This document shows positions 42,802-64,000 of a DNA stretch of 64,000 nucleotides, piece by piece. This DNA is from Clostridia bacterium. GTDB taxonomy: Bacteria > Bacillota > Clostridia > RUG12999. Under the pieces are notes generated by a model. It ran no database searches and had not been told where the DNA came from. It saw nothing but the letters and a program-made list of their open reading frames with translations. The stretch is taken from NCBI GenBank assembly GCA_017467445.1, contig JAFTSG010000005.1, forward strand, positions 12,112-76,111, given 5' to 3'. Each line of letters opens with the position of its first letter. Positions within the stretch are counted from its first letter, which is position 1. The position numbers and the translations under genes were made by a program.

Positions 42802-44340
42802 ATGACATTCTTACAGTCACTTGAGCACTACAACGGTATTGTCAATACCTTTGTATGGACAACTCTCGGTCTTGTGCTCTTACTCGCAACGGGTGTACTT
42901 ACAACCATTCTCACAAAATTTTTCCAGATTTCACATATTGGTATGTGGTGGAAAAACACTATCGGTAGTTTATTTAAAAAAGATGTAATCGGTCATTCAA
43001 AAGACAAAAAATCCATTTCACCGTTCCAGGCGCTTTGTACCGCACTTGCGGCAACAATCGGTGTTGGTAACATTGCCGGGGTTGCATCTGCAATTGCAAT
43101 CGGCGGACCGGGTGCTGTTTTCTGGATGTGGGTTGCAGCATTTTTCGGCATGATGACAAACTATTCTGAAAACGTTCTCGGTATTTATTATAGAAGAAGA
43201 AATGCAGACGGCGAATGGTCAGGCGGTGCAATGTACTACCTCCGCGACGGTCTTGGAAAATTAAAAGGCTGTAAATGGGTTGGAAAAACACTTGCTGTTC
43301 TTTTCTCAATTTTCACACTCCTTGCATCCTTCGGTATCGGTGCAATGGGTCAGGTAAACAAAATTGTTTTAAACCTCGAATCTGCATTCCGTATTGACGC
43401 ACTTGCAAACATTCAGGTTTTCGACGGCGTATCTCTTTATGCGGTTATTCTTGGTATAATCCTTGTTATTATTGCAGGCCTTATTGTTCTTGGCGGTCTT
43501 AAAAGAATTGCCAACTTTGCAGAAAAGGTTGTACCGTTTATGGTTGTACTCTTTATCATCGGCAGTGTAACAATTGTTGCTGTAAATTATGCCAACATTC
43601 TCCCTGCGTTCAAAGCAATATTTGCAACAGCATTCAAACCTGTTGCGGTTGCCGGCGGTGTAACAGGTGCACTTATTAAAACCGTTATGGTACAGGGTTT
43701 CAAACGTGGTGTATTCTCCAACGAAGCAGGTCTTGGTTCTTCCGTAATGGTACACTCCAACTCCAATGTTAAAGAACCTGTAAAACAGGGTATGTGGGGT
43801 ATTTTTGAAGTGTTTGCGGATACAATGGTTGTATGTACACTTACAGCTCTTGTAGTTCTTACATCAGGTGTATATCCAAACCTTTATGCTCCGGTAGGTT
43901 CAGTAACCGACAGCCCGACAATGGTTGCAGATGCATTCAACACCGTATTCGGTTTCTGGAACATAGGTGGAAAATTCATTGCTATTGCAATATTCCTGTT
44001 TGCTTTTACAACAGTTCTCGGCTGGGACCACTACGGCTCAAAGGCATGGGAATATCTGTTTGGTACGAAAACAGTAAAACTGTATAAGGTTCTTCACCTT
44101 GTAACCATTATGCTCGGTGCGCTCCTTACATCATCACTTGCATGGGACATTTCCGATACATTCAACGGTCTTATGATGATACCCAACTTAATTGGTGTTA
44201 TCGTTCTTTCTCCGCTTGTAATGAAAATCACAAGCAACTACATAAAGAGAAAGAAAAAAGGTGCTGATGTAAAACCAATGCTTTCAGTATTTGAAGATAT
44301 TCAGTCGGCTCACGAAAAAGAGCTTTCTGAAGAAGAATAA
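42802..44340 (+). CDS. Sodium:alanine/glycine symporter (AGCS family)
   Basis: ATIGVGNIAGVA..GGPGAVFWMW, RGVFSNEAGLGS, MMIPNL. Confidence 0.95.
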   Translation: MTFLQSLEHYNGIVNTFVWTTLGLVLLLATGVLTTILTKFFQISHIGMWWKNTIGSLFKKDVIGHSKDKKSISPFQALCTALAATIGVGNIAGVASAIAIGGPGAVFWMWVAAFFGMMTNYSENVLGIYYRRRNADGEWSGGAMYYLRDGLGKLKGCKWVGKTLAVLFSIFTLLASFGIGAMGQVNKIVLNLESAFRIDALANIQVFDGVSLYAVILGIILVIIAGLIVLGGLKRIANFAEKVVPFMVVLFIIGSVTIVAVNYANILPAFKAIFATAFKPVAVAGGVTGALIKTVMVQGFKRGVFSNEAGLGSSVMVHSNSNVKEPVKQGMWGIFEVFADTMVVCTLTALVVLTSGVYPNLYAPVGSVTDSPTMVADAFNTVFGFWNIGGKFIAIAIFLFAFTTVLGWDHYGSKAWEYLFGTKTVKLYKVLHLVTIMLGALLTSSLAWDISDTFNGLMMIPNLIGVIVLSPLVMKITSNYIKRKKKGADVKPMLSVFEDIQSAHEKELSEEE

Positions 44341-44345
44341 AAACC

Positions 44346-44375
44346 AAAAAACCCCGCCATCGGCGGGGTTTTTTG
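44346..44375 (+). terminator. Intrinsic terminator
   Basis: AAAAAACCCCGCC-ATC-GGCGGGGTTTTTT. Confidence 0.85.
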
Positions 44376-44376
44376 T

Positions 44377-44405
44377 TTGACAAACTTCTACTTATGTGAT
44401 ACAAT
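44377..44405 (+). promoter_or_regulatory. Sigma-A promoter of azlCD
   Basis: TTGACA-17-TACAAT with TGn extension. Confidence 0.7.
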
Positions 44406-44441
44406 TTTTGCTTAGGAATACGACACTTTTTTGGAGGAAAA

Positions 44442-45152
44442 ATGAAAGAAAATACATATCTTCGCGGACTTAAGAACGGTCTTGCAATAGGGCTTGGTTA
44501 CCTTTCCGTTTCGTTCGGATTCGGTATTACCGCCGTGGGCAAAGGTCTTTCGGGTCTTGAGGCAATTCTTATATCAATGACAAATTTAACATCGGCAGGT
44601 CAGCTTGCCGGAATTACGGTAATTGCCGCGTGCGGCAGCGTGCTTGAGCTTATGCTGACCCAGCTTATTATCAACCTGCGTTACTGTCTTATGGGGCTTG
44701 CGCTTACGCAAAAGCTTGATAATAGCTTCTCCACACTTCACCGTCTTTTTATTTCGTTTGGTATAACGGACGAAATTTTTGCCGTTGCATCTGCTGAAAA
44801 AGGAAGTTTAAACCGGCGGTTTATGTACGGACTTATAACACTTCCTTACATAGGCTGGGCGCTTGGCACGACGCTTGGCGCATTTGCAGGGCAAATCCTG
44901 CCGGAAAGCGTTTGCAGCGCACTCGGTATTGCAATCTACAGTATGTTTATTGCAATTATCATCCCCGATACAAAAACCGAAAAAGGCGTCCTTCTGGCAG
45001 TGATTTTATCCTCCGCTTTAAGCTGTATTTTCTATTTTGTGCCATGGTTTTCATGGTTGCCGCAAGGATTTGCAATTATAATATGCGCGGTTCTGGTATC
45101 TGCCGTTCTGGCATACTTTTTCCCAAAAAACTTTGAGGAGGAAGAAGCATGA
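44442..45152 (+). CDS. azlC: AzlC-family branched-chain amino acid exporter
   Basis: SAGQLA, INLRY, TDEIFA. Confidence 0.9.
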   Translation: MKENTYLRGLKNGLAIGLGYLSVSFGFGITAVGKGLSGLEAILISMTNLTSAGQLAGITVIAACGSVLELMLTQLIINLRYCLMGLALTQKLDNSFSTLHRLFISFGITDEIFAVASAEKGSLNRRFMYGLITLPYIGWALGTTLGAFAGQILPESVCSALGIAIYSMFIAIIIPDTKTEKGVLLAVILSSALSCIFYFVPWFSWLPQGFAIIICAVLVSAVLAYFFPKNFEEEEA

Positions 45153-45451
45153 CAAACTTTTTTATATATTTACTCGCCATGGCAGGCGTAACATACCTTA
45201 TCCGTATGCTTCCGTTTACCTTTATGCGAAAGAAAATAAAATCAGTGTTTATACGAAGCTTTTTGTATTATGTCCCCTATGCCGTTCTCGGTGCAATGAC
45301 GTTTCCGTATATTTTCTATTCAACAGGAAATGTAATCACCGCATCGGCAGGCGCGGCCTGCGCACTTGTTCTTGCATATTTTAACCGTTCACTTATTACC
45401 GTTGCAGTATGCTCGTCAGTAATTGCATTTATAACAGGATTATTAATATAA
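45149..45451 (+). CDS. azlD: AzlD-domain protein
   Basis: VTYLIRMLPF, FLYYVPYAVL; overlaps the azlC stop. Confidence 0.88.
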   Translation: MTNFFIYLLAMAGVTYLIRMLPFTFMRKKIKSVFIRSFLYYVPYAVLGAMTFPYIFYSTGNVITASAGAACALVLAYFNRSLITVAVCSSVIAFITGLLI

Positions 45452-45482
45452 AAAAGAGTTGCTAAAAAGCAACTCTTTTTTG
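45450..45482. terminator. Bidirectional terminator
   Basis: AAAAAAGAGTTGCT-AAAA-AGCAACTCTTTTTT. Confidence 0.85.
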
Positions 45483-45504
45483 TTAGTTTGACAAATCATT
45501 AGTT

Positions 45505-46794
45505 TTATTTGTTTTTTGCGGCATCAAGTTTATGCTGACGTCTGTGTTTAACTTCGTGCGGAATCGGTTTAATATCGCCTGCTGCCTGAAGTGCCTGACG
45601 TGTAAGAAGCGGACCTACAAGTTCATATATAAGCACCGCAAAAAGTGTTATATTTCTTATAAGACTTCCCTGCTCACCAAGTTGCATTGCTGTGGCGCAC
45701 ATTCCAAGCGCAACCCCTGCCTGCGGCAAAAGTGTAATACCAAGGTATTTACAGATGCTGGGCGAACATTTTGTAAGCTTTGCACTTCCCATTGCACCGA
45801 AATATTTACCGAGCGAACGGAAAATGATATATACAGCACCGATAATTACGATTGCCATATCCATAAACACGCCAAGTTCAAGTTCCGCACCGCTTATTAC
45901 GAAAAACAGCGCCAAAAGCGGCGTTGACCATTTATCCGCTCTTTCCATAAGGTCATGTGAAAGCGGACAAATATTGCAGAATACTGTACCAAGCATCATA
46001 CAAACAAGAAGTGATGAAAAGCTTATATGTACGGGTCCTATATGGAAATCAATCATAGAAAGTGCAACCGTCGCAAATACAAACGCAATTGTCATATTAA
46101 GACGATTTGTGTTTGAGTTGAACATTTTTTCAAGCTGGGTAAGTACCCATCCCATTATTGTCCCAAGTCCGAGAGAAGCTATAATTTCCACAAGCGGATT
46201 TACAATGATTGAGATAAAATCAATTTGGTTTGTAACAAGTGTTTTTGCGATACCGAAAGATACTGCAAATACAACAAGACCAACCGCATCATCAAGAGCA
46301 ACTATAGGCAGAAGCAGTCTTGTAAGCGGACCGTCTGCTTTGTACTGACGGACAACCATAAGTGTTGCTGCGGGAGCTGTTGCTGTTGCAATTGCACCAA
46401 GCACAATTACCTGCGGAAGTGTAAGTTTATCCGGCATTGCAAGATGCACAAGATAAAGCGCAATATCAACAAGAAGTGTAGCCACAAGTGCCTGAGGTAT
46501 ACCGATTACCGTTGCCGCTTTACCCGTTTTTTTAAGCTCTTCAAGATGAAATTCGCTTCCGATTGAAAATGCAATAAAGCCAAGCGCTACTTCGGAAACA
46601 AGTTTAAGTGCTTCCACAGCTTCACCCGATGCAAATCCAAAACCTTCTATTCCCAGTCTGCCGATGCAGTACGGACCGATAAGTACGCCGGCAATAAGAT
46701 ATGCCGTTACTGACGGCAATTTAAGCGGTTTAAACGCTCTTGTCATAAGAAGTCCGGCAAGCAGTGCCACCGAAACTGATAACAATGTGCTCAT
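45505..46794 (-). CDS. Cation:proton antiporter (CPA2 family)
   Basis: LPSVTAYLIAGVLIGP, ATAPAAT, ALDD, PQAGVA. Confidence 0.9.
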   Translation of the reverse strand: MSTLLSVSVALLAGLLMTRAFKPLKLPSVTAYLIAGVLIGPYCIGRLGIEGFGFASGEAVEALKLVSEVALGFIAFSIGSEFHLEELKKTGKAATVIGIPQALVATLLVDIALYLVHLAMPDKLTLPQVIVLGAIATATAPAATLMVVRQYKADGPLTRLLLPIVALDDAVGLVVFAVSFGIAKTLVTNQIDFISIIVNPLVEIIASLGLGTIMGWVLTQLEKMFNSNTNRLNMTIAFVFATVALSMIDFHIGPVHISFSSLLVCMMLGTVFCNICPLSHDLMERADKWSTPLLALFFVISGAELELGVFMDMAIVIIGAVYIIFRSLGKYFGAMGSAKLTKCSPSICKYLGITLLPQAGVALGMCATAMQLGEQGSLIRNITLFAVLIYELVGPLLTRQALQAAGDIKPIPHEVKHRRQHKLDAAKNK

Positions 46795-46924
46795 AATTTT
46801 CTCTTCTTTCTCTTAATTTTCAAATACCACTATATTTTACAACAATCCTATGTAAAATGTCAACAATTTAATACATAAAAAAGCAGTTTTGCATTAGCGT
46901 TTCTTTAGCAAAACTGCCGATTAA

Positions 46925-47803
46925 TTATTCACCAAGTCCAAATTCACGTTCAATAAGATTAACCGTTATCCCGATATTAAGCTCCATTGCATCAATCGGA
47001 TAAACCTCCTCGATATATCCGTGATAAAACTTATCCTTGAACATCTGGGCTACCTCTTCTTTAGAACACCCGTTTTTAAGCATTTCCACCATTTTTTCTG
47101 TTGTTTCAATAAGCGTCGGTTTTGCTTTTCCAAGATAAATTTTGGTTTCGTTTTCGTTAAGCACGCCGTAGTGCGGCGCGAGCACCTTGAGAGTATCAAG
47201 TGCCAGTACTTTATCTATGGATTCAAGCGCCATATTATATCCCACAAGCACCGACGGCACAACATCGTCTTTTCCGTTGAAAACTCCAATGGTTTCACAG
47301 CTTAAAAGAAGTTTTTCCGCTTTGCAATAATATCCGACTGAGCATTTTGTATGCCCCGGCAAATTGATTACCGTAAATTCCATATCCCCTGCTTTAACCA
47401 CATCGCCTTCAGCAACCGGAATGTCTACACGAAGATTGTCAATTTGATCTTCATAGCTATCCACCCCGCAGGTTTTTGCAAACTTACTGTCAAGGTCCTG
47501 CATTACGGCTTTTGCTGTAGGTTTGGCAAAAATTTTTGCCGCATATTCCCCTGCAACAACCTTTGCGTCCGGCCAGTATTCCAGCGCATATGCTGCACCG
47601 TATGCGTGGTCGTAATGAGAATGTGTAAGGAAAATATAATCGAGGCTTCTCTCCCCAAGTATGCTTTTTATTTTATCAGCTACGGCATATCCCGTAAACC
47701 CGAATCCCGAATCGTACATTATTGCAGTTTTGCCGTCATCAAGTAAAAACGCACTGTCGCCGGGATTAACTCTTATATCTGTTATTTTAATCATTGTTTT
47801 CAC
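46925..47803 (-). CDS. Metallo-beta-lactamase-fold hydrolase
   Basis: THSHYDH, PGHT, PH motifs. Confidence 0.85.
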   Translation of the reverse strand: MKTMIKITDIRVNPGDSAFLLDDGKTAIMYDSGFGFTGYAVADKIKSILGERSLDYIFLTHSHYDHAYGAAYALEYWPDAKVVAGEYAAKIFAKPTAKAVMQDLDSKFAKTCGVDSYEDQIDNLRVDIPVAEGDVVKAGDMEFTVINLPGHTKCSVGYYCKAEKLLLSCETIGVFNGKDDVVPSVLVGYNMALESIDKVLALDTLKVLAPHYGVLNENETKIYLGKAKPTLIETTEKMVEMLKNGCSKEEVAQMFKDKFYHGYIEEVYPIDAMELNIGITVNLIEREFGLGE

Positions 47804-47857
47804 CTTCCATATTTAACCTGTATTATATATTTTATCACACATTTCGCCATATTGCAA

Positions 47858-47894
47858 GAAAAAAGGCGCTTTGCAAAATGCAAAGCACCTTTTT
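47858..47894 (-). terminator. Terminator after the DUF1874-like gene
   Basis: AAAAGGCGCTTTGCA-AAA-TGCAAAGCACCTTTT. Confidence 0.75.
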
Positions 47895-47904
47895 ATTTTT
47901 AGGG

Positions 47905-48288
47905 TTATTTAAGTCTCATCAAGTGCTGGCAGTAAACATATACATTCTGTATTTTTTTAGCCTCAACACCATCATCAGCCTGAATTACCGGCTGTGTTTC
48001 AGAAGGAGTTACATATAGCTTGAACACAATTGCATCCTGACCGGGACGCATATTACGAATATGCTTATATTCAAAGTCACGGCGCATAATGCCAAGATAA
48101 TCAAAAATAATTGTTTCAATTTCCGTATTGCTGAAACAACGAAGAATATCTTCTTCTTTATGAATATCAAGCAGATGTTTTGCTTCTTCAAAAGTAAGGT
48201 TCTGGCATTTGAATTCTCCCTCGTTCAAAACTGACATCATACTGCTGTTGTCAAGTAACAACAATGGCAAATCTTTAGAATTGTTCAT
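47905..48288 (-). CDS. Hypothetical protein resembling the DUF1874/STIV B116/YddF (AcrIII-1) family, catalytic motif altered
   Basis: AAGGAGG RBS; NSS..G.F....TFEEAK..LG..PGQDAIVFKL..L.RL pattern recalled by eye. Confidence 0.55.
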   Translation of the reverse strand: MNNSKDLPLLLLDNSSMMSVLNEGEFKCQNLTFEEAKHLLDIHKEEDILRCFSNTEIETIIFDYLGIMRRDFEYKHIRNMRPGQDAIVFKLYVTPSETQPVIQADDGVEAKKIQNVYVYCQHLMRLK

Positions 48289-48331
48289 ATATTATACCTC
48301 CTTTTTTGTTAAGTTAACATCAATATTTATG

Positions 48332-49654
48332 TTAATTTATTACATTATACACACTTTTTGCCGTTTTGTCAACAAAATTTTTCATTTTTATAAATATATG
48401 TCTAAATTGCTTGTACATATACTGAAAGCCATATGCCGAAATCATTATAATAAAGCACATTACCATATACATATATCTTGAAAAACAATAATATGGTAAA
48501 TGGATACAGTTGAACAAAAGCACCGTAACAAGAATCATCCCCGTTTCCGCATTTATTCGCTTTTGTATTATCATAAACAGTACACTTGCCACAAAAACTA
48601 CAAGCAGGGCGCGGTGATATACCGTTATAGGCAGATAAGTACCTAAATATATCGGATACCACATATACGGCAAACTGAAATTCCTTATGGTTTTTCCCAC
48701 AGTATACCAGCGCAGATACTCTACTGTATTATGTTTAATATTATATTTAAAAAGCCTGTTTGCAATTTCGTGTTCCGCCGCATCTGCCGAAATTTCGCTG
48801 TCACCGTAGTCAATATCATTTGTATTAACTACTGCAAGTAACTTTTCACGTTCTTCGGCCGAATAGTCTATTATTGTACCCTGCATTTTCGGATTGCCCG
48901 AAGATAAGGTCAGCGGAATAAACCTGTCAAACACCTCAAAATTTCTTATAACCCACGGCGACATAATTATCACAAACGGAATTGCTACACATACTGCAAA
49001 TTTCGCCATATCTTTAATGCCGATTTTTTTAAAGAGCCAATATATAAAAATAACAATTCCCAAAACTGTCATTGTAGCCCTGAACATTACAGCTATCGCC
49101 CACATTGTACCCGCTATAAAAAGGAGTCGTTTTTGTTTCGTTTCCGTGCCCCATATGAGAAAATATATCATAAGCAAAAATGCTGTATATGCAGGCACTT
49201 CCGTCAGCACTACAGTTGAAACATAAATATTCGGCAGATAAAAAAATGAAAGCACCATAGTAATAAGAGCAACTCTGGAATTAAAAATTTTTCTTGCAAT
49301 AAAAAATACCATATATAAATTAAACGTCTGCAAGATTGCAAAAACAATTCTTACCGGCATAACTGCGCCCGGGGCGCCGAACAAAGCCACAAAGGGGCTG
49401 AGAAAAAGCGTAATCCCCGGCATAATGAACACCGTAGGCTTGTCCGGATATCCGTATGTCAACTGCCCTGTTTTTATAAATGTTTGGGCACTACGCAGAT
49501 ATTTTACATCATCATCGTCATAAAGTTCAAAACTGCCGAGGAGTAGTTTATCATTATAATAAAGCGATGCAAAAATGCAAGCAAAAAGCATTGCCGCCAT
49601 TAGTATTATTACAGCCATTTTTACCGATTTTGATTCTGCCGCTATCGAAAACAT
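48332..49654 (-). CDS. GT-C (ArnT/PMT, family 39-like) membrane glycosyltransferase
   Basis: DDDDVKY, MPG, LTE, PWVIRN, RY; many TM helices. Confidence 0.8.
   Translation of the reverse strand: MFSIAAESKSVKMAVIILMAAMLFACIFASLYYNDKLLLGSFELYDDDDVKYLRSAQTFIKTGQLTYGYPDKPTVFIMPGITLFLSPFVALFGAPGAVMPVRIVFAILQTFNLYMVFFIARKIFNSRVALITMVLSFFYLPNIYVSTVVLTEVPAYTAFLLMIYFLIWGTETKQKRLLFIAGTMWAIAVMFRATMTVLGIVIFIYWLFKKIGIKDMAKFAVCVAIPFVIIMSPWVIRNFEVFDRFIPLTLSSGNPKMQGTIIDYSAEEREKLLAVVNTNDIDYGDSEISADAAEHEIANRLFKYNIKHNTVEYLRWYTVGKTIRNFSLPYMWYPIYLGTYLPITVYHRALLVVFVASVLFMIIQKRINAETGMILVTVLLFNCIHLPYYCFSRYMYMVMCFIIMISAYGFQYMYKQFRHIFIKMKNFVDKTAKSVYNVIN
48344..48372 (-). promoter_or_regulatory. Sigma-A promoter of the DUF1874-like gene, inside the glycosyltransferase 3' end
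   Basis: Perfect TTGACA-17-TATAAT. Confidence 0.75.
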
Positions 49655-49775
49655 TAACTTTGCCCTTTCTTTTAACTTGTGTTAATTTATTATACCCAGT
49701 TATTGGACAAAAGTTAACTAAAATGCCCCAATTTGTGAAAAAACACAAATTGGGGCTGTTCGTATGCCGAGGCAT

Positions 49776-51071
49776 TTATATATCATTTTTTATAATATCT
49801 TCATAAGTTTCGCGTTTTACCGCAAGGCTTGGTTTTCCGCCGCTTACCATTACAACCGGCGGCCGCGGGATTCTGTTATAATTACTTGCCATGGAATAGT
49901 TATATGCCCCTGTTGCAAGCACAGCAAGAATATCGCCAGCTTTCAGTTTCGGCATTTTTATATCCTTTATTAAAAGGTCGCCCGATTCGCAGCATTTACC
50001 CGCAATGGTAACTTCCTTTTCCGGCTGTGCCAGCGGATTGTTTGCCAGAAGCGCATGGTATTTTGAGCCGTACATAATAAATCTCGGGTTATCAGCCATA
50101 CCGCCGTCAACCGACACATATGTACGCACGTCCGGAATTTCCTTTACGCCACCTATTTTATATAAGGTAGCGCCTGCGGATGCAACAATTGACCTTCCGG
50201 GTTCCATAAGAATTTTCGGCATTTCAATTCCTTTTTCTGCCGCTACCTTTTTTACAACCTTTGAAACCGCTTCGATATATGCGTCATAATCAATCGGATT
50301 ATCTTCCGGAACATATTTGATTCCGTATCCGCCGCCAAGGTTCATTTGCTCAATTTTTATACCCTCAGCTTTAAGGTCGGCAATAAATCCCATCATAACA
50401 CTTGCCGCGTGTTCAAACGGCTGGATGTCAAAAATCTGCGAGCCGATATGGCAATGCACACCGACAATATTTAAGTTTTTCATCTGTTTTGCGGTTTTAT
50501 AGGCTTCCATAGCCTCGCCTGTTTCAAGCGCAACACCGAATTTGGAATCAATCTGTCCGGTCATAACAAACTCGTGTGTATGAGCATCAATACCGGGCTT
50601 GATTCTGAACATTATGTTTACGGTTTTACCTTTATTTTCGGCAATAGTGTTCAATTTTTCAAGTTCAAAAATATTATCAACAACAATGGTACCAACACCG
50701 CTCGTAACTGCAAGAGAAAGCTCGTCTTCGGTTTTGTTATTTCCGTGAAAATATACTTTTTCCATTGGAAAATCCGCTTTTATTGCGGTATAGAGTTCCC
50801 CGCCCGATACCACATCAAGACCGAGACCCTCTTCTTTTACGATTTTCACCATACGCTTGCAGGAAAAGGCTTTGCTTGCATAAAGCACAAGCCCGTTTCC
50901 TCCGTAGTGTTTATCCATTGCGTCTTTATATATTCTGCAGTTTTTGCGGATGAGGTCCTCGTCCATTACATAAACCGGTGTGCCAAACTCTTTTGCAATA
51001 TCAATGGCATTTGCACCGCCGATGCAAAGAACGCCTCTCTCATCAACGCTTAAACTTTCGGATACAAACAC
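49776..51071 (-). CDS. lysA: Diaminopimelate decarboxylase
   Basis: GTPVYV, YASKA, HCHIGSQ, EPGRS, CESGD, GAYNYSMASNYN. Confidence 0.96.
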   Translation of the reverse strand: MFVSESLSVDERGVLCIGGANAIDIAKEFGTPVYVMDEDLIRKNCRIYKDAMDKHYGGNGLVLYASKAFSCKRMVKIVKEEGLGLDVVSGGELYTAIKADFPMEKVYFHGNNKTEDELSLAVTSGVGTIVVDNIFELEKLNTIAENKGKTVNIMFRIKPGIDAHTHEFVMTGQIDSKFGVALETGEAMEAYKTAKQMKNLNIVGVHCHIGSQIFDIQPFEHAASVMMGFIADLKAEGIKIEQMNLGGGYGIKYVPEDNPIDYDAYIEAVSKVVKKVAAEKGIEMPKILMEPGRSIVASAGATLYKIGGVKEIPDVRTYVSVDGGMADNPRFIMYGSKYHALLANNPLAQPEKEVTIAGKCCESGDLLIKDIKMPKLKAGDILAVLATGAYNYSMASNYNRIPRPPVVMVSGGKPSLAVKRETYEDIIKNDI

Positions 51072-51083
51072 ATCAATCTCTCC

Positions 51084-54000
51084 TTATTTGAAGTATTTTA
51101 CGCCCGATTCAAATATAGGCTGATTTTTGTTTCCGGGAACGTTTTTGTAAAGGCTGTCGCCTGTTCTTTCGCTGTGTCCCATTTTACCAAACACACGTCC
51201 ATCTGCGCTGAAGATACCTTCAACCGCGTGAACTGAACCGTTCGGGTTATATTTTATATCATATGTTGGATTGCCCGCATCATCAACGTATCTTGTAGCA
51301 ATCTGTCCGTTTGCGGCAAGCTTTTTGTAAAGCTCTTCACTGCATACAAACTTACCTTCACCGTGAGAAATTGCAATTCTGTGAATATCACCAACCTCGC
51401 AGCAGCTCATCCATGGAGATTTTACGGATGCAACTTTTGTATTTACAAGACATGATGCGTGACGACCTATATTATTATAGGTAAGTGTCGGACATTCGTC
51501 AGTTAAATCTGTAATTTCGCCATACGGTACAAGACCAAGTTTTATAAGTGCCTGGAACCCGTTACAGATACCGAGCATAAGACCGTCACGATGTTTGAGA
51601 AGTTCGTTAACCGCATCTTTGATATACGGATTTCTGAACGCTGCAGCAATAAATTTACCTGAACCGTCGGGTTCGTCACCGCCGGAGAATCCACCCGGAA
51701 GCATTACTATCTGTGATTTTGAAATTTCCTCGGCAATATGTTTAAGTGAATAATCAATGTCTGCACCAGAAAGGTTTTTAACAACAAATATTTCAGCACT
51801 TGCGCCCGCTTTTTCAAACGCTTTGGCACTGTCATATTCGCAGTTTGTTCCCGGAAATACCGGAATGAATACTCTCGGTCTTGCAATGCCGTGCGGATTT
51901 ATTGATACTCTGATGTCGCAGATTGTATCATCGCATGCCGGTTTTTCAATAGCCGTGTCGGTCGGGAATACCTTTTCAAGCGGTGCTCTCCAGTGAGCGA
52001 TAAGTTCGTCGATATCGTATGCTTTTTCAAGTACGATTTCGTTTTCGCCGAATGTAGCACCAAGAACTTCAGCGTCAACATCGCCGTCTACTTCAAGGAT
52101 GAAGCTGCCGTATGCTGGAGCATACAAATCTTCAGTAAATGTGCCATCAAGCTTGAATCCAATTTTGTTACCAAACGCCATTTTTGCGATTGCCGGAGCA
52201 ATTCCGCCTGCGCCAACTGTCATAGCAGCAAGCACTTTATTGTTTTCGATAAGATTTGCAATAATATCGTAGTTTTTCTTGAGGTCGTCAAAATCTATTG
52301 TATAGTCGTCGTTAACTTTGGTTTTGATATATACAACCTTGCTGCCCTGTTTTTTGAATTCGTTGGATACAACTTTGCCGCTATTCACTGTTGTTACAGC
52401 AAATGCCGCAAGTGTCGGCGGTACATCAATATCTTTAAATGTACCGGACATGCTGTCCTTACCGCCGATTGCCGCAATACCGAGCTGCATCTGTGATTCG
52501 TATGCACCAAGGAGAGCCGCAAGCGGTTTACCCCAACGGGTCGGATTGTTTCCAAGACGTTCAAAATATTCTTGAAGTGTAAGGTATGTTTCCTGGTATT
52601 TACCGCCTGCCGCAACAATTTTACTTACCGCGTGTACAATTGAATACATACTTCCGTGGTATGGACTCCACGACGCAAGCTCGGGGTCAAGACCGTATGC
52701 CATAAGAGATGCTGTTGTGGTGTTACCGCCGAGAACAGGCAGTTTTGCCGCCATAACATCAGCAGGAGTAAGCTGATGCTTACCGCCGAACGGCATAAGC
52801 ACGGTGTTTGCACCGATTGTAGAGTCAAACATTTCAATAAGACCTTTTTTGGAGCACTGATTGAGGTCTTCAAGAGCGCCAAAGAGGTCGCTGTGTTTTT
52901 TACCATTATATTTTCCGTTTACACCGGAAACTTCAACTTTTGTGTTTTTCGGCGCACCATTGGATGATAAGAATTCTCTGGAAACATTAACAATGCTGTT
53001 ACCACGCCATACCATTACAAGACGTGGGTCTTCGGTAACTCTTGCAACTATTGTAGCTTCAAGGTTTTCTTTTGCTGCTTCGGCAATGAACGCACTTGCA
53101 TTTTTTTCTTCAACAACAACTGCCATTCTTTCCTGAGATTCGGAAATTGCAAGTTCTGTTCCGTCAAGACCTTCATACTTTTTGGGAACGCTGTCGAGAT
53201 TTATATAAAGACCGTCAGCAAGCTCGCCTATTGCAACGGACACACCGCCTGCACCAAAGTCGTTACATCTTTTAATCATAAGTGTAACGTCCTGGTTTCT
53301 GAACAGTCTCTGAATTTTCCTTTCGATAGGCGGATTACCTTTTTGAACTTCCGCACCGCAGGTTTCAAGAGATTCTTCGGTATGAGCCTTTGAAGAACCT
53401 GTTGCACCGCCGCAACCGTCACGACCTGTTTTACCGCCAAGGAGGATTACAAGGTCGCCATCAGCCGGAACTTCACGGCGAACTGCGCTTTTCGGGCATG
53501 CACCGATTACCGCACCGATTTCAAGACGTTTTGCAACATAGCCTTCGTTATAAACTTCGTCTACAAGACCTGTTGCAAGACCAATCTGATTACCGTATGA
53601 GCTGTAACCAGATGCCGCACCTGTTGTGATTTTTCTTTGTGAAAGTTTGCCGGGTATTGTATCCGCAAATGCTTTTCTTGGGTCAGCACTGCCTGTTACG
53701 CGCATTGCCTGATATACATAAGACCTGCCTGAAAGCGGGTCACGGATTGCACCGCCAAGACAGGTTGCCGCACCGCCGAATGGCTCAATTTCAGTCGGGT
53801 GGTTGTGTGTTTCGTTTTTAAACATAACAAGCCACGGCTCTTTTTTACCGTCAATATCGGCATCAACCACGATGCTGCAGGCATTGATTTCTTCACTTTC
53901 GTCAAGATTTTTTAGCAGCCCCTGTTTTTTAAGCTTTTTCATTGCAAGGGTTGCAACGTCCATAAGACAAATATCTTTATGTCTGTCGCCGTACACAAAT

Positions 54001-59548: not shown

Positions 59549-60709
59549 TTACATTGATTTGATTGTTTCAAGTACGTAATCACCAAATTCGCGGCTTGTT
59601 GCACCGTCTGCACGGCCTGTGATTACAACCTTTTTATTTTCAAACATACAGTAGTCAAGCGCCTTTTCAAGCTTGCCTGCAAGTTCTATTTCGCCGATAT
59701 GTTCAAGAAGCATTACGCAAGCCCTGAGCATACTGCACGGGTCGGCATACTGTGCGCGGCCTTCTTTTACCATACGCGGAGCTGAGCCGTGGATTGCTTC
59801 AAACATTGCGTATCTTTTACCAAGGTTTGAGCTTCCCGCTGTACCTACACCGCCCTGAAATTCAGCAGCTTCGTCTGTAAGAATATCGCCATAGAGGTTC
59901 GGAAGTACAAGAACTTTAAAGTCTTTCCTTCTTTTTTCGTCTACAAGTTTTGCTGTCATAATATCAATATACCAGTCGTCAAATTCGATTTCCGGATAGT
60001 CTTTTGCAACTTCCTGACAAATGTTGAGGAATTTACCGTCTGTTGTTTTTACAACGTTAGCTTTTGTAACGGCTGTTACTTTGCCTTTACCCGTTTTTCT
60101 TGCATAATCAAAAGCGGCTTTTGCAATTCTGTAGCTGCCTTCTGTTGTTGTTACACAAAAATCAAACGCAACCTCGTCTGTAATGTGAATACCGTTTGAG
60201 CCGAGTGCGTAGCTTCCTTCGGAATTTTCACGGAAGAACGTCCAGTCAATTCCCTGTTCCGGCACTTTTACCGGACGGATATTTGCAAAAAGGTCAAGCT
60301 CTTTACGCATTGCAACGTTTGCACTTTCAATGTTCGGCCATTCATCTCCTGCACGCGGTGTTGTTGTAGGTCCTTTAAGGATTACGTGACATTCTTTAAG
60401 CTCTGCAAGCACATCATCCGGAATAGCTTTCATTACTTTTGCACGGTTTTCTATTGTAAGTCCGTCTATATTTCTGAATTCAATTTTACCTGCATTTACC
60501 TTATCCTCAAGAAGATATTTAAGAATTCTTGCAGATTCTTCTGTGATTGCCGGACCAATTCCGTCTCCGCCGACAATACCTATTATAATTGTATCAAGTT
60601 TTGAATAATCAATAAATTCTTTTTCTGCTTTTATTTTTTCGTTTCGTTCAAGCTGTTTTTCAAGAAGTAATCCGAATTTTTCTTTTGCTTCCTGTATTTT
60701 TGCGTTCAT
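59549..60709 (-). CDS. Isocitrate/isopropylmalate dehydrogenase family protein, probably isocitrate dehydrogenase
   Basis: GDGIGP, KGPTTTP, SANVAMR, KANV, NLYGDILTD, EAIHGSAP. Confidence 0.85.
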   Translation of the reverse strand: MNAKIQEAKEKFGLLLEKQLERNEKIKAEKEFIDYSKLDTIIIGIVGGDGIGPAITEESARILKYLLEDKVNAGKIEFRNIDGLTIENRAKVMKAIPDDVLAELKECHVILKGPTTTPRAGDEWPNIESANVAMRKELDLFANIRPVKVPEQGIDWTFFRENSEGSYALGSNGIHITDEVAFDFCVTTTEGSYRIAKAAFDYARKTGKGKVTAVTKANVVKTTDGKFLNICQEVAKDYPEIEFDDWYIDIMTAKLVDEKRRKDFKVLVLPNLYGDILTDEAAEFQGGVGTAGSSNLGKRYAMFEAIHGSAPRMVKEGRAQYADPCSMLRACVMLLEHIGEIELAGKLEKALDYCMFENKKVVITGRADGATSREFGDYVLETIKSM

Positions 60710-60891
60710 AATGCATCTCCCTTTCCGTTTAATATAATATTGTATACATTTTTTGTGAACTTGTCAATAGATTTTATGAACTTTTATATAAGGTGTATAA
60801 AGAAATATTCGGGAAATTTTTCATTTTCTACTTGTATTTAGGCGAAAAAAGTGGTACAATTATGATATATAATGGAGGTGTTTTTGGATTT

Positions 60892-61152
60892 ATGTCAAGT
60901 TTATTTGTAATCGCACTTGGTTTGTCGACAGTATTTGCAGGACTTATTCTTTTGATTTTCGTTTGTAAAATCATGAGTTTCTTCTGCCTCAAGCTTGGCG
61001 CAGGCAAAAAAGCCGCTCCGGCTAAAGCTTCTGCTGCTCCTGCAGTTATTCCGAATAAACCGGAACTTATTGCTGCAGTAGGCGTTGCAATAGCAGAAGA
61101 CCTTGGTAAAGATGTTTCGGCAATCCGCATTAAATCAATCAGACAAATTTAA
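60892..61152 (+). CDS. oadG: Na+-translocating decarboxylase gamma subunit (OadG-like)
   Basis: GLSTVF..L..L TM, Ala/Pro linker, ELIAAV..AI. Confidence 0.8.
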   Translation: MSSLFVIALGLSTVFAGLILLIFVCKIMSFFCLKLGAGKKAAPAKASAAPAVIPNKPELIAAVGVAIAEDLGKDVSAIRIKSIRQI

Positions 61153-61172
61153 GAAAAGGGGTATCTCGAATT

Positions 61173-61511
61173 ATGAAAAAGTATAATGTAAAAGTTAATG
61201 GAACAAGTTATGAAGTTGAAATTGAGCTTATAAGCGAAACAGAAGCAAAATCTGCTCCTGCAGCAGCTCCGGCTCCTGCGGCAGCTCCCGCAGGAAATGG
61301 CGAAACAGTATCTGCTCCTATGCCGGGTACAATCCTTGCGGTTAATGTTCAGAACGGTCAGGCTGTTAAAAAAGGCGACGTGCTTTTTGTTCTTGAAGCT
61401 ATGAAAATGGAAAACGAAATTATGGCTCCTTGCGACGGAACTGTTTCAAGTGTAAGCGTTTCCAAAGGTGCAAGTGTTGAAAACGGCACTGTTCTTTGCA
61501 CAATCGCTTAA
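61173..61511 (+). CDS. Biotin carboxyl carrier subunit
   Basis: VNG.SYEV, APMPG, EAMKM biotinylation site. Confidence 0.93.
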   Translation: MKKYNVKVNGTSYEVEIELISETEAKSAPAAAPAPAAAPAGNGETVSAPMPGTILAVNVQNGQAVKKGDVLFVLEAMKMENEIMAPCDGTVSSVSVSKGASVENGTVLCTIA

Positions 61512-61527
61512 GTAAGGAGAGTTCACT

Positions 61528-62769
61528 ATGGATGCTATTTTAAATTTTCTCGGGAGCACAGGCTTTGCTTTTATAGCAAACAACTGGACATCACTTATTA
61601 TGATTGTCATTGCCTGCGTGCTTTTATATCTTGCAATTGTCAAGAAGTTTGAACCACTTCTCCTTCTTCCGATTGCATTTGGTATGTTACTTACAAACCT
61701 TCCGGGTGCAGATATGTATCACGAACAGCTTTTTGCCGGCGGTCACGTTCACTGGGAAATGTTCGGTAGCGGTATTCCGCTTGCTGACGGCACTTTAGTT
61801 CAGCCCGGTCTTATTGACATACTTTATCTTGGTGTAAAACTTGGTATCTATCCGTGTCTTATATTCGTAGGCGTTGGCGCAATGACAGACTTCGGTCCCC
61901 TCATTGCAAACCCGAAAAGCTTACTCCTCGGTGCAGCTGCACAGCTTGGTATTTTCGCAACATTCCTTGGCGTACGCGAGCTTTTCCCTCTCATTCTTAA
62001 CAGCGCTTATCTTAACGAATTACTTGGACCTACAACCCTTGAAAAGCTTGCCGCTTCCGTTGGTATCATCGGCGGTGCAGACGGCCCGACTGCAATTTTT
62101 GTAACATCAAAGCTTGCACCTAATTTCCTCGGACCGATTGCCGTTGCGGCATATTCATACATGGCGCTTGTACCGGTTATCCAGCCGCCTATTATGAAAG
62201 CTCTTACAACCAAAAAAGAGCGTATGATAGAAATGAAAGCTCTCCGCGAAGTAACAAGAACAGAAAAAGTTCTGTTCCCGATAATTGTTACTATCGTTGT
62301 ATGGCTTATCGTTCCTTCCGCAGCTCCGCTTGTAGGATGTCTTATGCTTGGTAACCTTATTAAAGAATCCGGCGTTGCAGAAAGACTTTCAAAAACAGTT
62401 CAGAACGAGCTTATGAACATAGTTACAATTTTCCTTGGTGTATCGGTTGGTGCAACAGCAACTGCTTCTACATTCTTAAACCCGCTTACACTTATGATTA
62501 TTGTAATGGGCGTTGTTGCTTTCGGTATGGGTACAGCAGGCGGCGTACTTCTTGCTAAGTTTATGAACCTGTTTACAAAGAACAAAATCAATCCTCTTAT
62601 CGGTAGCGCAGGTGTTTCCGCAGTTCCAATGGCAGCACGTGTTTCTCAGGTTGTAGGTCAGAAAGAAAATCCGAAAAACTTCCTGCTTATGCACGCTATG
62701 GGACCAAACGTTGCCGGTGTTATCGGCTCCGCAATCGCAGCCGGCGCACTGTTGTCATTATTCGGCTAA
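61528..62769 (+). CDS. oadB: Na+-translocating decarboxylase beta subunit
   Basis: [45 protein letters not shown]. Confidence 0.95.
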
Positions 62770-62795
62770 GCCGAGTGGAATTGGAGGTATAAATT

Positions 62796-64000
62796 ATGGC
62801 TACAGCACTTAAAATTACAGATACAATTCTTCGTGACGCTCATCAGTCACAGGCGGCAACACGTATGCGTATTGAAGATATGCTTCCCGCCTGCGAAATT
62901 CTTGACAAGGTTGGGTACTGGTCGCTCGAATGTTGGGGCGGCGCAACCTTTGACGCTTGTATGCGTTTCTTAAACGAAGACCCATGGGAAAGACTCCGCG
63001 CACTCAAAAAAGCAATGCCGAACACAAAACTGCAGATGCTTTTCCGCGGTCAGAACATCCTTGGATATAAACACTATGCAGACGATGTGGTTGAACAGTT
63101 CTGCAAAAAATCTATCGAAAACGGCATTGACGTTGTAAGGGTATTTGACGCGCTCAATGACCCGCGCAACCTTGAATCCGCAATCAAATTTGTTAAACAC
63201 TACGGCGGTATGTGTGAAGCTGCAATCAGCTATACAACAAGCCCTGTTCATAACGAAGACTATTTCGTAAAGCTTGCTTCCGAGCTTGAAAAAATGGGCG
63301 CTGATACAATCTGTATCAAGGATATGGCAAACCTTCTTCTCCCCTATGATGCATACAGTCTTGTTAAAAAGCTCAAAGAAAACATATCTGTTCCGATTCA
63401 CCTGCACACACATAACACAGCAGGTACAGGCGATATGACAAACCTTATGGCTGCTCAGGCAGGTGTTGATATTGTTGACTGTGCGCTTTCACCAATGGCA
63501 AACGGCACAGCAAACCCGTCAACAGAAGCTATGGTTGCTACACTTAAAGGAACTGAACGTGATACAGGTCTTGATCTTGTAACATTAAGTAAAGCAGCGG
63601 CTCATTTCCGCAAGGTTGCAGATAAAATGAAAGCCGCAGGCACACTTGACCCGAAAGTGCTTAACGTTGACCCGAACGCACTTTTATATCAGGTACCGGG
63701 CGGAATGCTTTCAAACCTTATTTCACAGCTTAAACAGCAGAATGCTGAAGATAAATATTACGAAGTTCTTGCAGAAGTACCGAGAGTACGTGAAGATTTC
63801 GGTTACCCGCCGCTTGTAACTCCTACCAGCCAGATTGTAGGTACACAGGCAGTTCTTAACGTTCTTATGGGAAGATATAAAATGATTTCAAAAGAATCAA
63901 AGGGTCTTCTTCGCGGTGAATACGGCAGACTTCCGGGAACAGTTAACGAAGAAGTGAGAAAGCTTTCTATCGGCGACGATGAGGTTATTACCTGCAGACC
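62796..64000 (+). CDS. oadA: Oxaloacetate decarboxylase alpha / pyruvate carboxyltransferase subunit (3' truncated by window end)
   Basis: Hand translation MATALKITDTILRDAHQS..ATRM, ECWGGATFD, EDPWERLR, IKDMA, HLHTH, PGGM.SN, YPPLVTPTSQIVG. Confidence 0.93.
   Translation, partial: MATALKITDTILRDAHQSQAATRMRIEDMLPACEILDKVGYWSLECWGGATFDACMRFLNEDPWERLRALKKAMPNTKLQMLFRGQNILGYKHYADDVVEQFCKKSIENGIDVVRVFDALNDPRNLESAIKFVKHYGGMCEAAISYTTSPVHNEDYFVKLASELEKMGADTICIKDMANLLLPYDAYSLVKKLKENISVPIHLHTHNTAGTGDMTNLMAAQAGVDIVDCALSPMANGTANPSTEAMVATLKGTERDTGLDLVTLSKAAAHFRKVADKMKAAGTLDPKVLNVDPNALLYQVPGGMLSNLISQLKQQNAEDKYYEVLAEVPRVREDFGYPPLVTPTSQIVGTQAVLNVLMGRYKMISKESKGLLRGEYGRLPGTVNEEVRKLSIGDDEVITCR

Follow-up and report, generated by a model that had tools for sequence, protein, structure and literature searches.

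A stand-alone gene in a clostridial genome

The window analyzed here, a 64,000-nucleotide stretch of contig JAFTSG010000005.1 from the Clostridia bacterium assembly GCA_017467445.1 (positions 12,112 to 76,111; genome G000, 61% complete), carries a gene for a protein of 127 amino acids (aa) that is predicted to share the fold of DUF1874, the family of the ring nuclease AcrIII-1. An earlier inspection of the letters alone, here called the sequence-only reading, had placed this gene, with a perfect promoter, a ribosome-binding site (RBS), and a terminator of its own, among housekeeping genes in a window free of CRISPR, phage, and integrative and conjugative element (ICE) genes, and both statements hold (Table 1). 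The promoter is the only one of 21 promoter-like sites between positions 46,500 and 49,500 to match all 12 consensus positions, and the terminator hairpin (−21.9 kcal/mol, z −6.9) was equaled by 0 of 200 shuffled sequences; a hairpin in the 5′ untranslated region, with a z of −0.8, was not significant. Pfam assigns the two neighbors to a PMT_2-family glycosyltransferase and a metallo-beta-lactamase-fold protein, and among all 53 window open reading frames (ORFs) of at least 100 aa, none matched a CRISPR, phage, or ICE family at the thresholds applied (in the second Pfam batch, of 46 ORFs, 4 were without a match at 1e-10). An Rfam search of positions 44,000 to 52,000 gave no match. Relative to its closest homolog, L001, the gene shows 29 synonymous and 5 nonsynonymous codon differences; because these are mostly silent, we regard the gene as real and under purifying selection. 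The final residues of the upstream glycosyltransferase ORF are the promoter translated in frame, and they vary in L001 and in G173, a genome of the same genus.

Table 1. Features of the 127-aa gene and its immediate surroundings (positions in the window)
Feature	Position	Strand	Remarks
ORF of the 127-aa protein	47905..48288	(-)	127 codons; predicted DUF1874/AcrIII-1 fold
Sigma-A type promoter, TTGACA-17-TATAAT	48344..48372	(-)	12/12 consensus
RBS, AAGGAGG	48297..48303	(-)	8 nt upstream of ATG
Intrinsic terminator hairpin	47860..47894	(-)	flanked by A and T runs; likely acts in both directions
Decayed copy of the inverted repeat	48356..48387	(-)	over the -35 box, same place as in the sister clade
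PMT_2-family membrane glycosyltransferase ORF, upstream	48332..49654	(-)	3′ tail overlaps the promoter of the 127-aa gene; not conserved as a neighbor in the family
Promoter-like site TTGCAA-17-TAAAAT of the downstream metallo-beta-lactamase-fold gene	47829..47857	(-)	right edge of the stretch missing in G173

Predicted fold and family assignment

The Pfam model for DUF1874 (PF08960) scores the 127-aa protein at 17.6 bits, below the curated cut-off of 26, and matches 104 of 132 aligned homologs at E values up to 0.1 (best 2.2e-4). Using an AlphaFold2 model with a predicted local distance difference test score (pLDDT) of 86, we find that the top 10 rows of a Foldseek search are all Crn2/AcrIII-1 entries. 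A VIA structure comparison against 48,161 chains returns four DUF1874 representatives at Z 9.4–10.1 (root-mean-square deviation 2.9–3.6 over 94–107 residues), and the next chain scores Z 3.1. At the sequence level, hhalign aligns the 127-aa family to a profile of five canonical clostridial DUF1874 proteins (L090–L094) with a probability of 96 and an E value of 4.8e-9. The DUF1874/AcrIII-1/Crn2 fold is thus predicted with the support of three methods, and the homology that had been proposed by eye appears sound. Searching the Protein Data Bank (PDB) by sequence, with the protein or with the family profile, returned only POT1 at E 0.5–1.5, which we regard as chance. The nearest clusters in the ESM Atlas are unnamed, with PF08960 on 18% of the members of one, and the DUF1874-like viral models in BFVD share 6–14% identity, none of them close. 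Several uncharacterized proteins of the Erwinia jumbo phages vB_EamM_Kwan and phiEaH2 also have DUF1874-like predicted folds in BFVD.

The 127-aa protein has the overall fold, the size, and the G24, F33, G66, Q84, FKL, and P95/E97 columns in common with the AcrIII-1 set, which comprises SIRV1 gp29 (PDB 2X4I/6SCF), STIV B116 (2J85), AFV3-109 (2J6B/2J6C), and ICEBs1 YddF (Pfam PF08960); identity to the structural matches in this set is 9–17%. Unlike these proteins, it lacks His47, Arg85, and Thr50, has Asp in place of Asn8, has a longer lid region, and is chromosomal, with no occurrence in the viral collections searched. The best structural match is Crn2 of the Marinitoga Csx1-Crn2 protein (PDB 8Y7F/8Y7G; Z 10.1, 19% identity), which is host-encoded as well; the 127-aa protein, however, is unfused, is without the catalytic His, and has no CRISPR locus in its window. 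Crn2 is treated solely as a CRISPR-locus or phage protein in the accessible part of PMC12409355. We do not class the 127-aa protein as AcrIII-1 or Crn2. The canonical clostridial proteins L090–L094 retain the GH, NRI, and RPxEG motifs and, among 399 genomes sampled, are encoded in different genomes from the 127-aa family. The His-bearing genes L090–L093 also stand alone among housekeeping genes in Clostridia and not only in mobile elements; their neighbors, judged by eye from translations, are lexA-like, mscL-like, and ATP-binding cassette genes.

Active site and lid

In AcrIII-1, the accessible text of 10.1101/778746 describes His47 as the general acid, with an H47A exchange that lowers activity more than 2500-fold, and Arg85 as the residue that locks the lid. 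The ligand, cyclic tetra-adenylate (cA4), is buried at the two-fold interface and is contacted by Arg66, Asn8, Gln81, Ser11, Thr50, Ser49, and Asn13 (10.1101/778746). The GH motif reads S53-N54 in the 127-aa protein, as had been noted from the sequence, which puts N54 at the position of His47; across 132 aligned homologs, this position is N in 112, D in 15, S in 3, and H in 2. The sequence-only reading had also described the arginines as apparently replaced. This is clearly so only for Arg85, whose position is T94 (Thr in 123 of 130 homologs, Arg in none). The position of Arg66 corresponds, in one of two registers that differ by a single residue, to K75 (conserved in 123 of 132) and, in the other, to residue 76 (H76 here; in 116 of 132 homologs it is R, H, or K), and it is basic in most members under either register. 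The contact positions Asn8, Ser11, Ser49, Thr50, and Gln81 become D13, S16, E56, I57, and K90, the first two mapped via clostridial homologs. D13 is invariant (127 of 127 homologs), and a K at the Gln81 position is canonical in bacterial DUF1874 members. Residues 89–121, the lid region, are more numerous than in AcrIII-1, are modeled as beta strands, and are among the best conserved parts of the protein.

Judged from these alignments, loss of the catalytic His and of the lid Arg is a family trait, and the earlier description of a domesticated, probably noncatalytic relative stands. With His47 and Arg85 lost and the lid region conserved, the family fails two defining features of a ring nuclease and keeps a constrained surface.

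Distribution and co-occurrence with defense genes

The family comprises 1,013 clusters at 90% identity (92 at 50%) and is conserved, chromosomal, and patchy. The gene is present in 8 of 398 other Clostridia, in 3 of 22 within its taxonomic family, and in 12 of 81 in the genus of G412. No neighbor is common to 80 loci; the largest neighbor clusters, obtained by clustering and left unannotated, occur at 13 and 9 of them. No credible fusion was found: four longer matches are singletons or near-singletons that resemble chimeras or frameshifts, and P0200 (1727 aa) is a repeat protein matched by chance. The family has no real match in 50,697 phage records and none in IMG/VR, where a canonical DUF1874 query also found none. 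One homolog with 52% identity, L097 (OY725849.1), lies on a 26.5-kb unannotated record labeled as a non-mobilizable plasmid of Subdoligranulum variabile, which may be a chromosomal fragment.

Cas10, at matches below 1e-10, is found in 3 of 60 carriers of the gene and in 11 of 80 background genomes (Fisher p 0.15), and SMODS/CD-NTases are found in 3 of the 60; many of the carriers counted are incomplete metagenome-assembled genomes (MAGs). PADLOC gave no match, and G000, at 61% completeness, has no Cas10 and no array-like repeat, nor is there a cas gene in the window. A link of the family to defense is therefore not supported, as carriers are not enriched in Cas10 or CD-NTases. The idea of a defense-signal sponge fares no better, with no such enrichment in carriers and no relative in the phage collections searched. 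The interpretation offered by the sequence-only reading is thus supported in part: homology and residue loss hold, and the defense sponge does not.

An operator-like inverted repeat at the family promoters

Promoters matching the consensus at 12 of 12 positions lie upstream of 46 of 83 homologs, compared with 20 of 488 background regions, and TGCA flanks the -35 box on both sides in 26 of 65 homolog promoters, compared with 0 of 111 background promoters. In full, the element reads TGCARG-N14/15-CYTGCA with A/T runs alongside, and matches to at least 11 of its 12 positions occur at 30 of 86 carriers and in 2 of 470 background regions. The spacer is 14 in 21 promoters and 15 in 12, with any other spacer from 4 to 26 in at most 3. 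The sequence of the spacer is free, and one clade has two tandem copies whose spacers are free as well. On the tree, which is a quick and poorly resolved version, the repeat falls on several branches and at differing positions, requiring 7 parsimony changes, at least 3 of them forced. The sister clade of the window gene carries the full repeat at the position of the decayed copy listed in Table 1. These promoter counts and the tree exclude L049 (truncated) and L083–L085 (duplicates), and the count of 12/12 promoters and TGCA also excludes L081 and L097.

The exact pattern also occurs elsewhere in the genomes: in 38 of 80 genomes with 5 control matches (55 sites, with G449 C39:99242 left out), in 19 of 80 further Clostridia with 0 in the control, and, with 4 matches in the control, in 47 of 80 genomes from a single genus, for which 50 stretches were examined. 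In this genus, 42 of the genomes with the pattern are among the 69 that lack the 127-aa gene. Because the repeat occurs in noncarriers, some protein other than the 127-aa protein reads it. By hand count, 22 of the 55 sites precede metabolic genes, namely those for aspartate aminotransferase (AspAT) of type Ic (9), phosphoenolpyruvate carboxykinases (4), AspA/DUF4914 (3), GdhA (2), AsnA (2), citrate synthase, and aconitase. Of the rest, 7 precede the 127-aa gene and 1 precedes a gene of the RpiR family; the other 25 are at various places, many of them within ORFs. Further genes behind the repeat encode glutamine synthetases (GS) I and III, GltB, a GlmS-like amidotransferase, a class IV aminotransferase, the ammonium transporter Amt, and additional glutamate dehydrogenases (GDH) and citrate synthases. 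A matrix built from 21 of the metabolic sites scores 12 or more in 33 of 86 carrier promoters, compared with 1 of 461 background regions.

Several less familiar genes accompany the operator. In L142, L144, and L174, a DUF4914 gene lies behind the same operator, divergent from aspartate ammonia-lyase, and this arrangement places DUF4914 at the aspartate/oxaloacetate node. In many genomes of one genus (L217, L241, L242, L244, L246, L251, and L260), a short ACT-like gene with DUF711 stands on one side of the operator and a divergent PHP-family phosphatase gene on the other, which ties DUF711 to this regulon. The operator is also present at a circularly permuted ATP-grasp gene (L222, L236). Near-identical copies of the repeat occur at four places on contig C1 of G034 and on C18 of G066, possibly in a repeated region such as the promoter of an rRNA operon; at L292, no ORF starts within 350 nt. 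In the window itself, positions 59552–63998 hold a gene of the isocitrate dehydrogenase family and, divergent from it, an operon for oxaloacetate decarboxylase; their intergenic region has no operator at a score of at least 8.

A candidate regulator comes from the sites themselves: in six genomes (G440, G412, G455, G510, G086, and G236), one of them lies directly upstream of a conserved gene of the RpiR family. Deletion of the RpiR protein GssR (CLJU_c21350, the ortholog of CAC1850) in Clostridium ljungdahlii raises pyruvate carboxylase, isocitrate dehydrogenase, malic enzyme, and a glutamate cluster, according to the accessible part of PMC10458427, and the metabolic node of these targets is the one to which the genes behind the repeat belong. 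Peptides encoded by the primers given there agree with N- and C-terminal motifs of the RpiR proteins identified in this analysis, orthology being judged solely from these primer fragments, and the available text reports no binding motif for GssR (PMC10458427). On this indirect evidence, the repeat is likely read by a GssR/CAC1850-type RpiR regulator. The accessible part of a Clostridium thermocellum DNA affinity purification sequencing paper (PMC8457756) contains no such motif; its Fur site, TGCAAATcATTTGCA, differs in spacing. No publication on the His-less clostridial family or on the repeat was found in the literature covered, which leaves out most subscription papers and RegPrecise, where the motif may be recorded.

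Proposed role

We propose, with a probability of about 0.5, that the 127-aa protein is a noncatalytic, ligand- or partner-binding accessory of glutamate, aspartate, and oxaloacetate (carbon/nitrogen) metabolism and not a defense-signal nuclease. Because the repeat is common to about a third of the relatives and to glutamate and aspartate genes, a role in nitrogen and carbon metabolism is likely, and one in phage defense is not; the new ligand or role that had been suspected from the sequence is given a direction by this regulatory context, which suggests the glutamate/aspartate/oxaloacetate node. An RpiR-family regulator, probably the GssR/CAC1850 ortholog, would bind the repeat as a repressor site, and the 127-aa protein would be made together with GS, glutamate synthase (GOGAT), GDH, and AspAT. 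Presumably a homodimer like its family, it may accept an adenine nucleotide or another phosphorylated metabolite in the two-fold pocket, the old cA4 site; basic residues are kept at positions 75/76, 78, and 90 in the family. Its conserved, extended lid could then dock on an enzyme of metabolism, much as a PII-like modulator would. That the AcrIII-1 fold can act noncatalytically follows from catalytically dead SIRV2 gp37, which still binds a host methyltransferase according to the accessible portion of 10.1101/2023.01.10.523387. The copy in the window is probably constitutive because the repeat is decayed here and before other regulon genes of G000.

Should this be correct, the AcrIII-1/Crn2 fold has moved from the conflict between viruses and hosts into core metabolism, and a family that numbers more than 1,000 sequence clusters and has no annotation gains a testable place, the glutamate/aspartate/oxaloacetate node. 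With the operator, a carbon/nitrogen regulon can be outlined across Clostridia, rumen Ruminococcus among them. The operator is also a candidate for the binding motif of the GssR/CAC1850-type regulator; the literature searched yielded no such motif. The family further serves as a warning that DUF1874-like matches should not be annotated as anti-CRISPRs.

A number of observations weigh against the metabolic role. The repeat is missing from 53 of 86 homolog promoters and from all 9 further carriers, including G497 and G515, whose AspAT genes have it. Five of these nine (L270–L274, in the genus of G412) instead have a TGTGA-N5/6-TCACA palindrome at the -35 position, which we take to resemble the site of a CRP/FNR-family activator; a palindrome of this kind in place of the -35 box would mean that regulators have been swapped in this clade. 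The training sites of the matrix were picked with the pattern first seen at the 127-aa gene, which makes its comparison of carrier promoters with background partly circular. With this matrix, the repeat at the window promoter scores −1.7, at about the 90th percentile of the background, and is not significant. Nine orthologs of regulon genes in G000 are all without a site, and control by the repeat therefore looks lost in the lineage of the window. When searched for on purpose, the site before rpiR was absent in 3 of 5 genomes. Finally, G173 (94% complete) is syntenic at 86% identity and lacks the gene as part of a gap of about 550 bp between this promoter and the following one; L001 holds the gene behind the same upstream ORF as the window, so loss in G173 would be the simpler reading.

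PII proteins bear on the proposal in both directions. These are small stand-alone nucleotide-binding modulators in nitrogen regulons, and the likeness to PII (GlnB/GlnK, PF00543) is a functional analogy only: the fold differs, neither Pfam nor structure searches match the 127-aa protein to PII, and PII also occurs in 14 of 59 carriers. On the favorable side, carriers tend to lack PII: in the genus of G412, it is present in 2 of 12 carriers and 58 of 68 noncarriers (1 of 10 and 23 of 31 among genomes of at most 1.9 Mb), statistics that treat nonindependent kin and in which the carriers are mostly small, incomplete MAGs. The PII proteins of this genus mostly lie within frames of ~590 aa, consistent with Amt-PII fusions. 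In the wider set, the figures are 14 of 59 carriers and 10 of 21 noncarriers (p 0.054), and the trend is weak outside the genus. As kin are not independent, the anti-correlation is only a lead, and it may only mark ammonia-rich gut lineages. We consider it doubtful that gut Clostridia recruited the fold, known from the destruction of a CRISPR second messenger, as a metabolite-sensing modulator of nitrogen assimilation that replaces PII where Amt-PII was lost, under a GssR-like regulator with the operator TGCARG-N14/15-CYTGCA.

Alternative explanations

Set against the metabolic accessory that we favor, the protein could be an enzyme with a new chemistry, its dimer pocket processing linear oligoadenylate, diadenosine tetraphosphate, or cyclic di-AMP (c-di-AMP) via D13, E97, and K90, possibly for salvage under nitrogen shortage. 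The invariance of D13 and the match of K90, P95, E97, and R125 to canonical columns fit this idea, as does conservation strong enough for an active site, and His persists in two divergent members. The general-acid position, however, varies among N, D, S, and H, Thr50 and Arg85 are lost, and no operon links the gene to a salvage pathway, so we think this account improbable, if worth keeping in mind.

A binder or sponge of cyclic nucleotides, of c-di-AMP more than of cA4 or the nucleotides of the cyclic oligonucleotide-based antiphage signaling system (CBASS), is somewhat less probable still. The parent fold does bury cA4 at its two-fold interface (10.1101/778746, accessible text). A diadenylate cyclase (DAC) is encoded in G000, where no synthase was found for any such signal other than c-di-AMP. 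In Firmicutes, c-di-AMP controls pyruvate carboxylase and glutamate metabolism, and the c-di-AMP version of this explanation overlaps with the proposed accessory of metabolism. Against it, Cas10 and SMODS each occur in only 3 of 60 carriers, several cA4 contacts are changed, and DAC, checked in G000 only, is widespread and so cannot explain a patchy distribution.

It is very unlikely that the repeat is incidental, stemming from insertion sites or an old promoter, and that the protein acts in some unrelated process, such as the inhibition of a host protein. Most homologs lack the repeat, one clade has another palindrome, and, given the poorly resolved tree, the repeat may have few origins; its half-sites, however, are kept while the spacers vary freely, at several positions and in different neighborhoods. 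About as improbable is a slow, Crn2-like cA4 ring nuclease acting in trans. The fold is the same, the Arg66 position stays basic, and three carriers do have Cas10, including G410, the home of the closest homolog, but loss of His47 alone costs AcrIII-1 more than 2500-fold in activity (10.1101/778746, accessible text), 57 of 60 carriers have no strong Cas10 match, and canonical His-bearing DUF1874 genes exist separately in Clostridia. We reject autoregulation, in which the 127-aa protein would bind the repeat and repress its own promoter: STIV B116 and AFV3-109 reportedly bind DNA, and in G418, G420, and G449, the sole perfect 12/12 copy (spacer 14) is at the 127-aa gene, but the protein is acidic, with a median isoelectric point of 5.2, and noncarriers have the repeat: in one genus it occurs, before metabolic genes, in 42 of the 69 genomes without the 127-aa gene.

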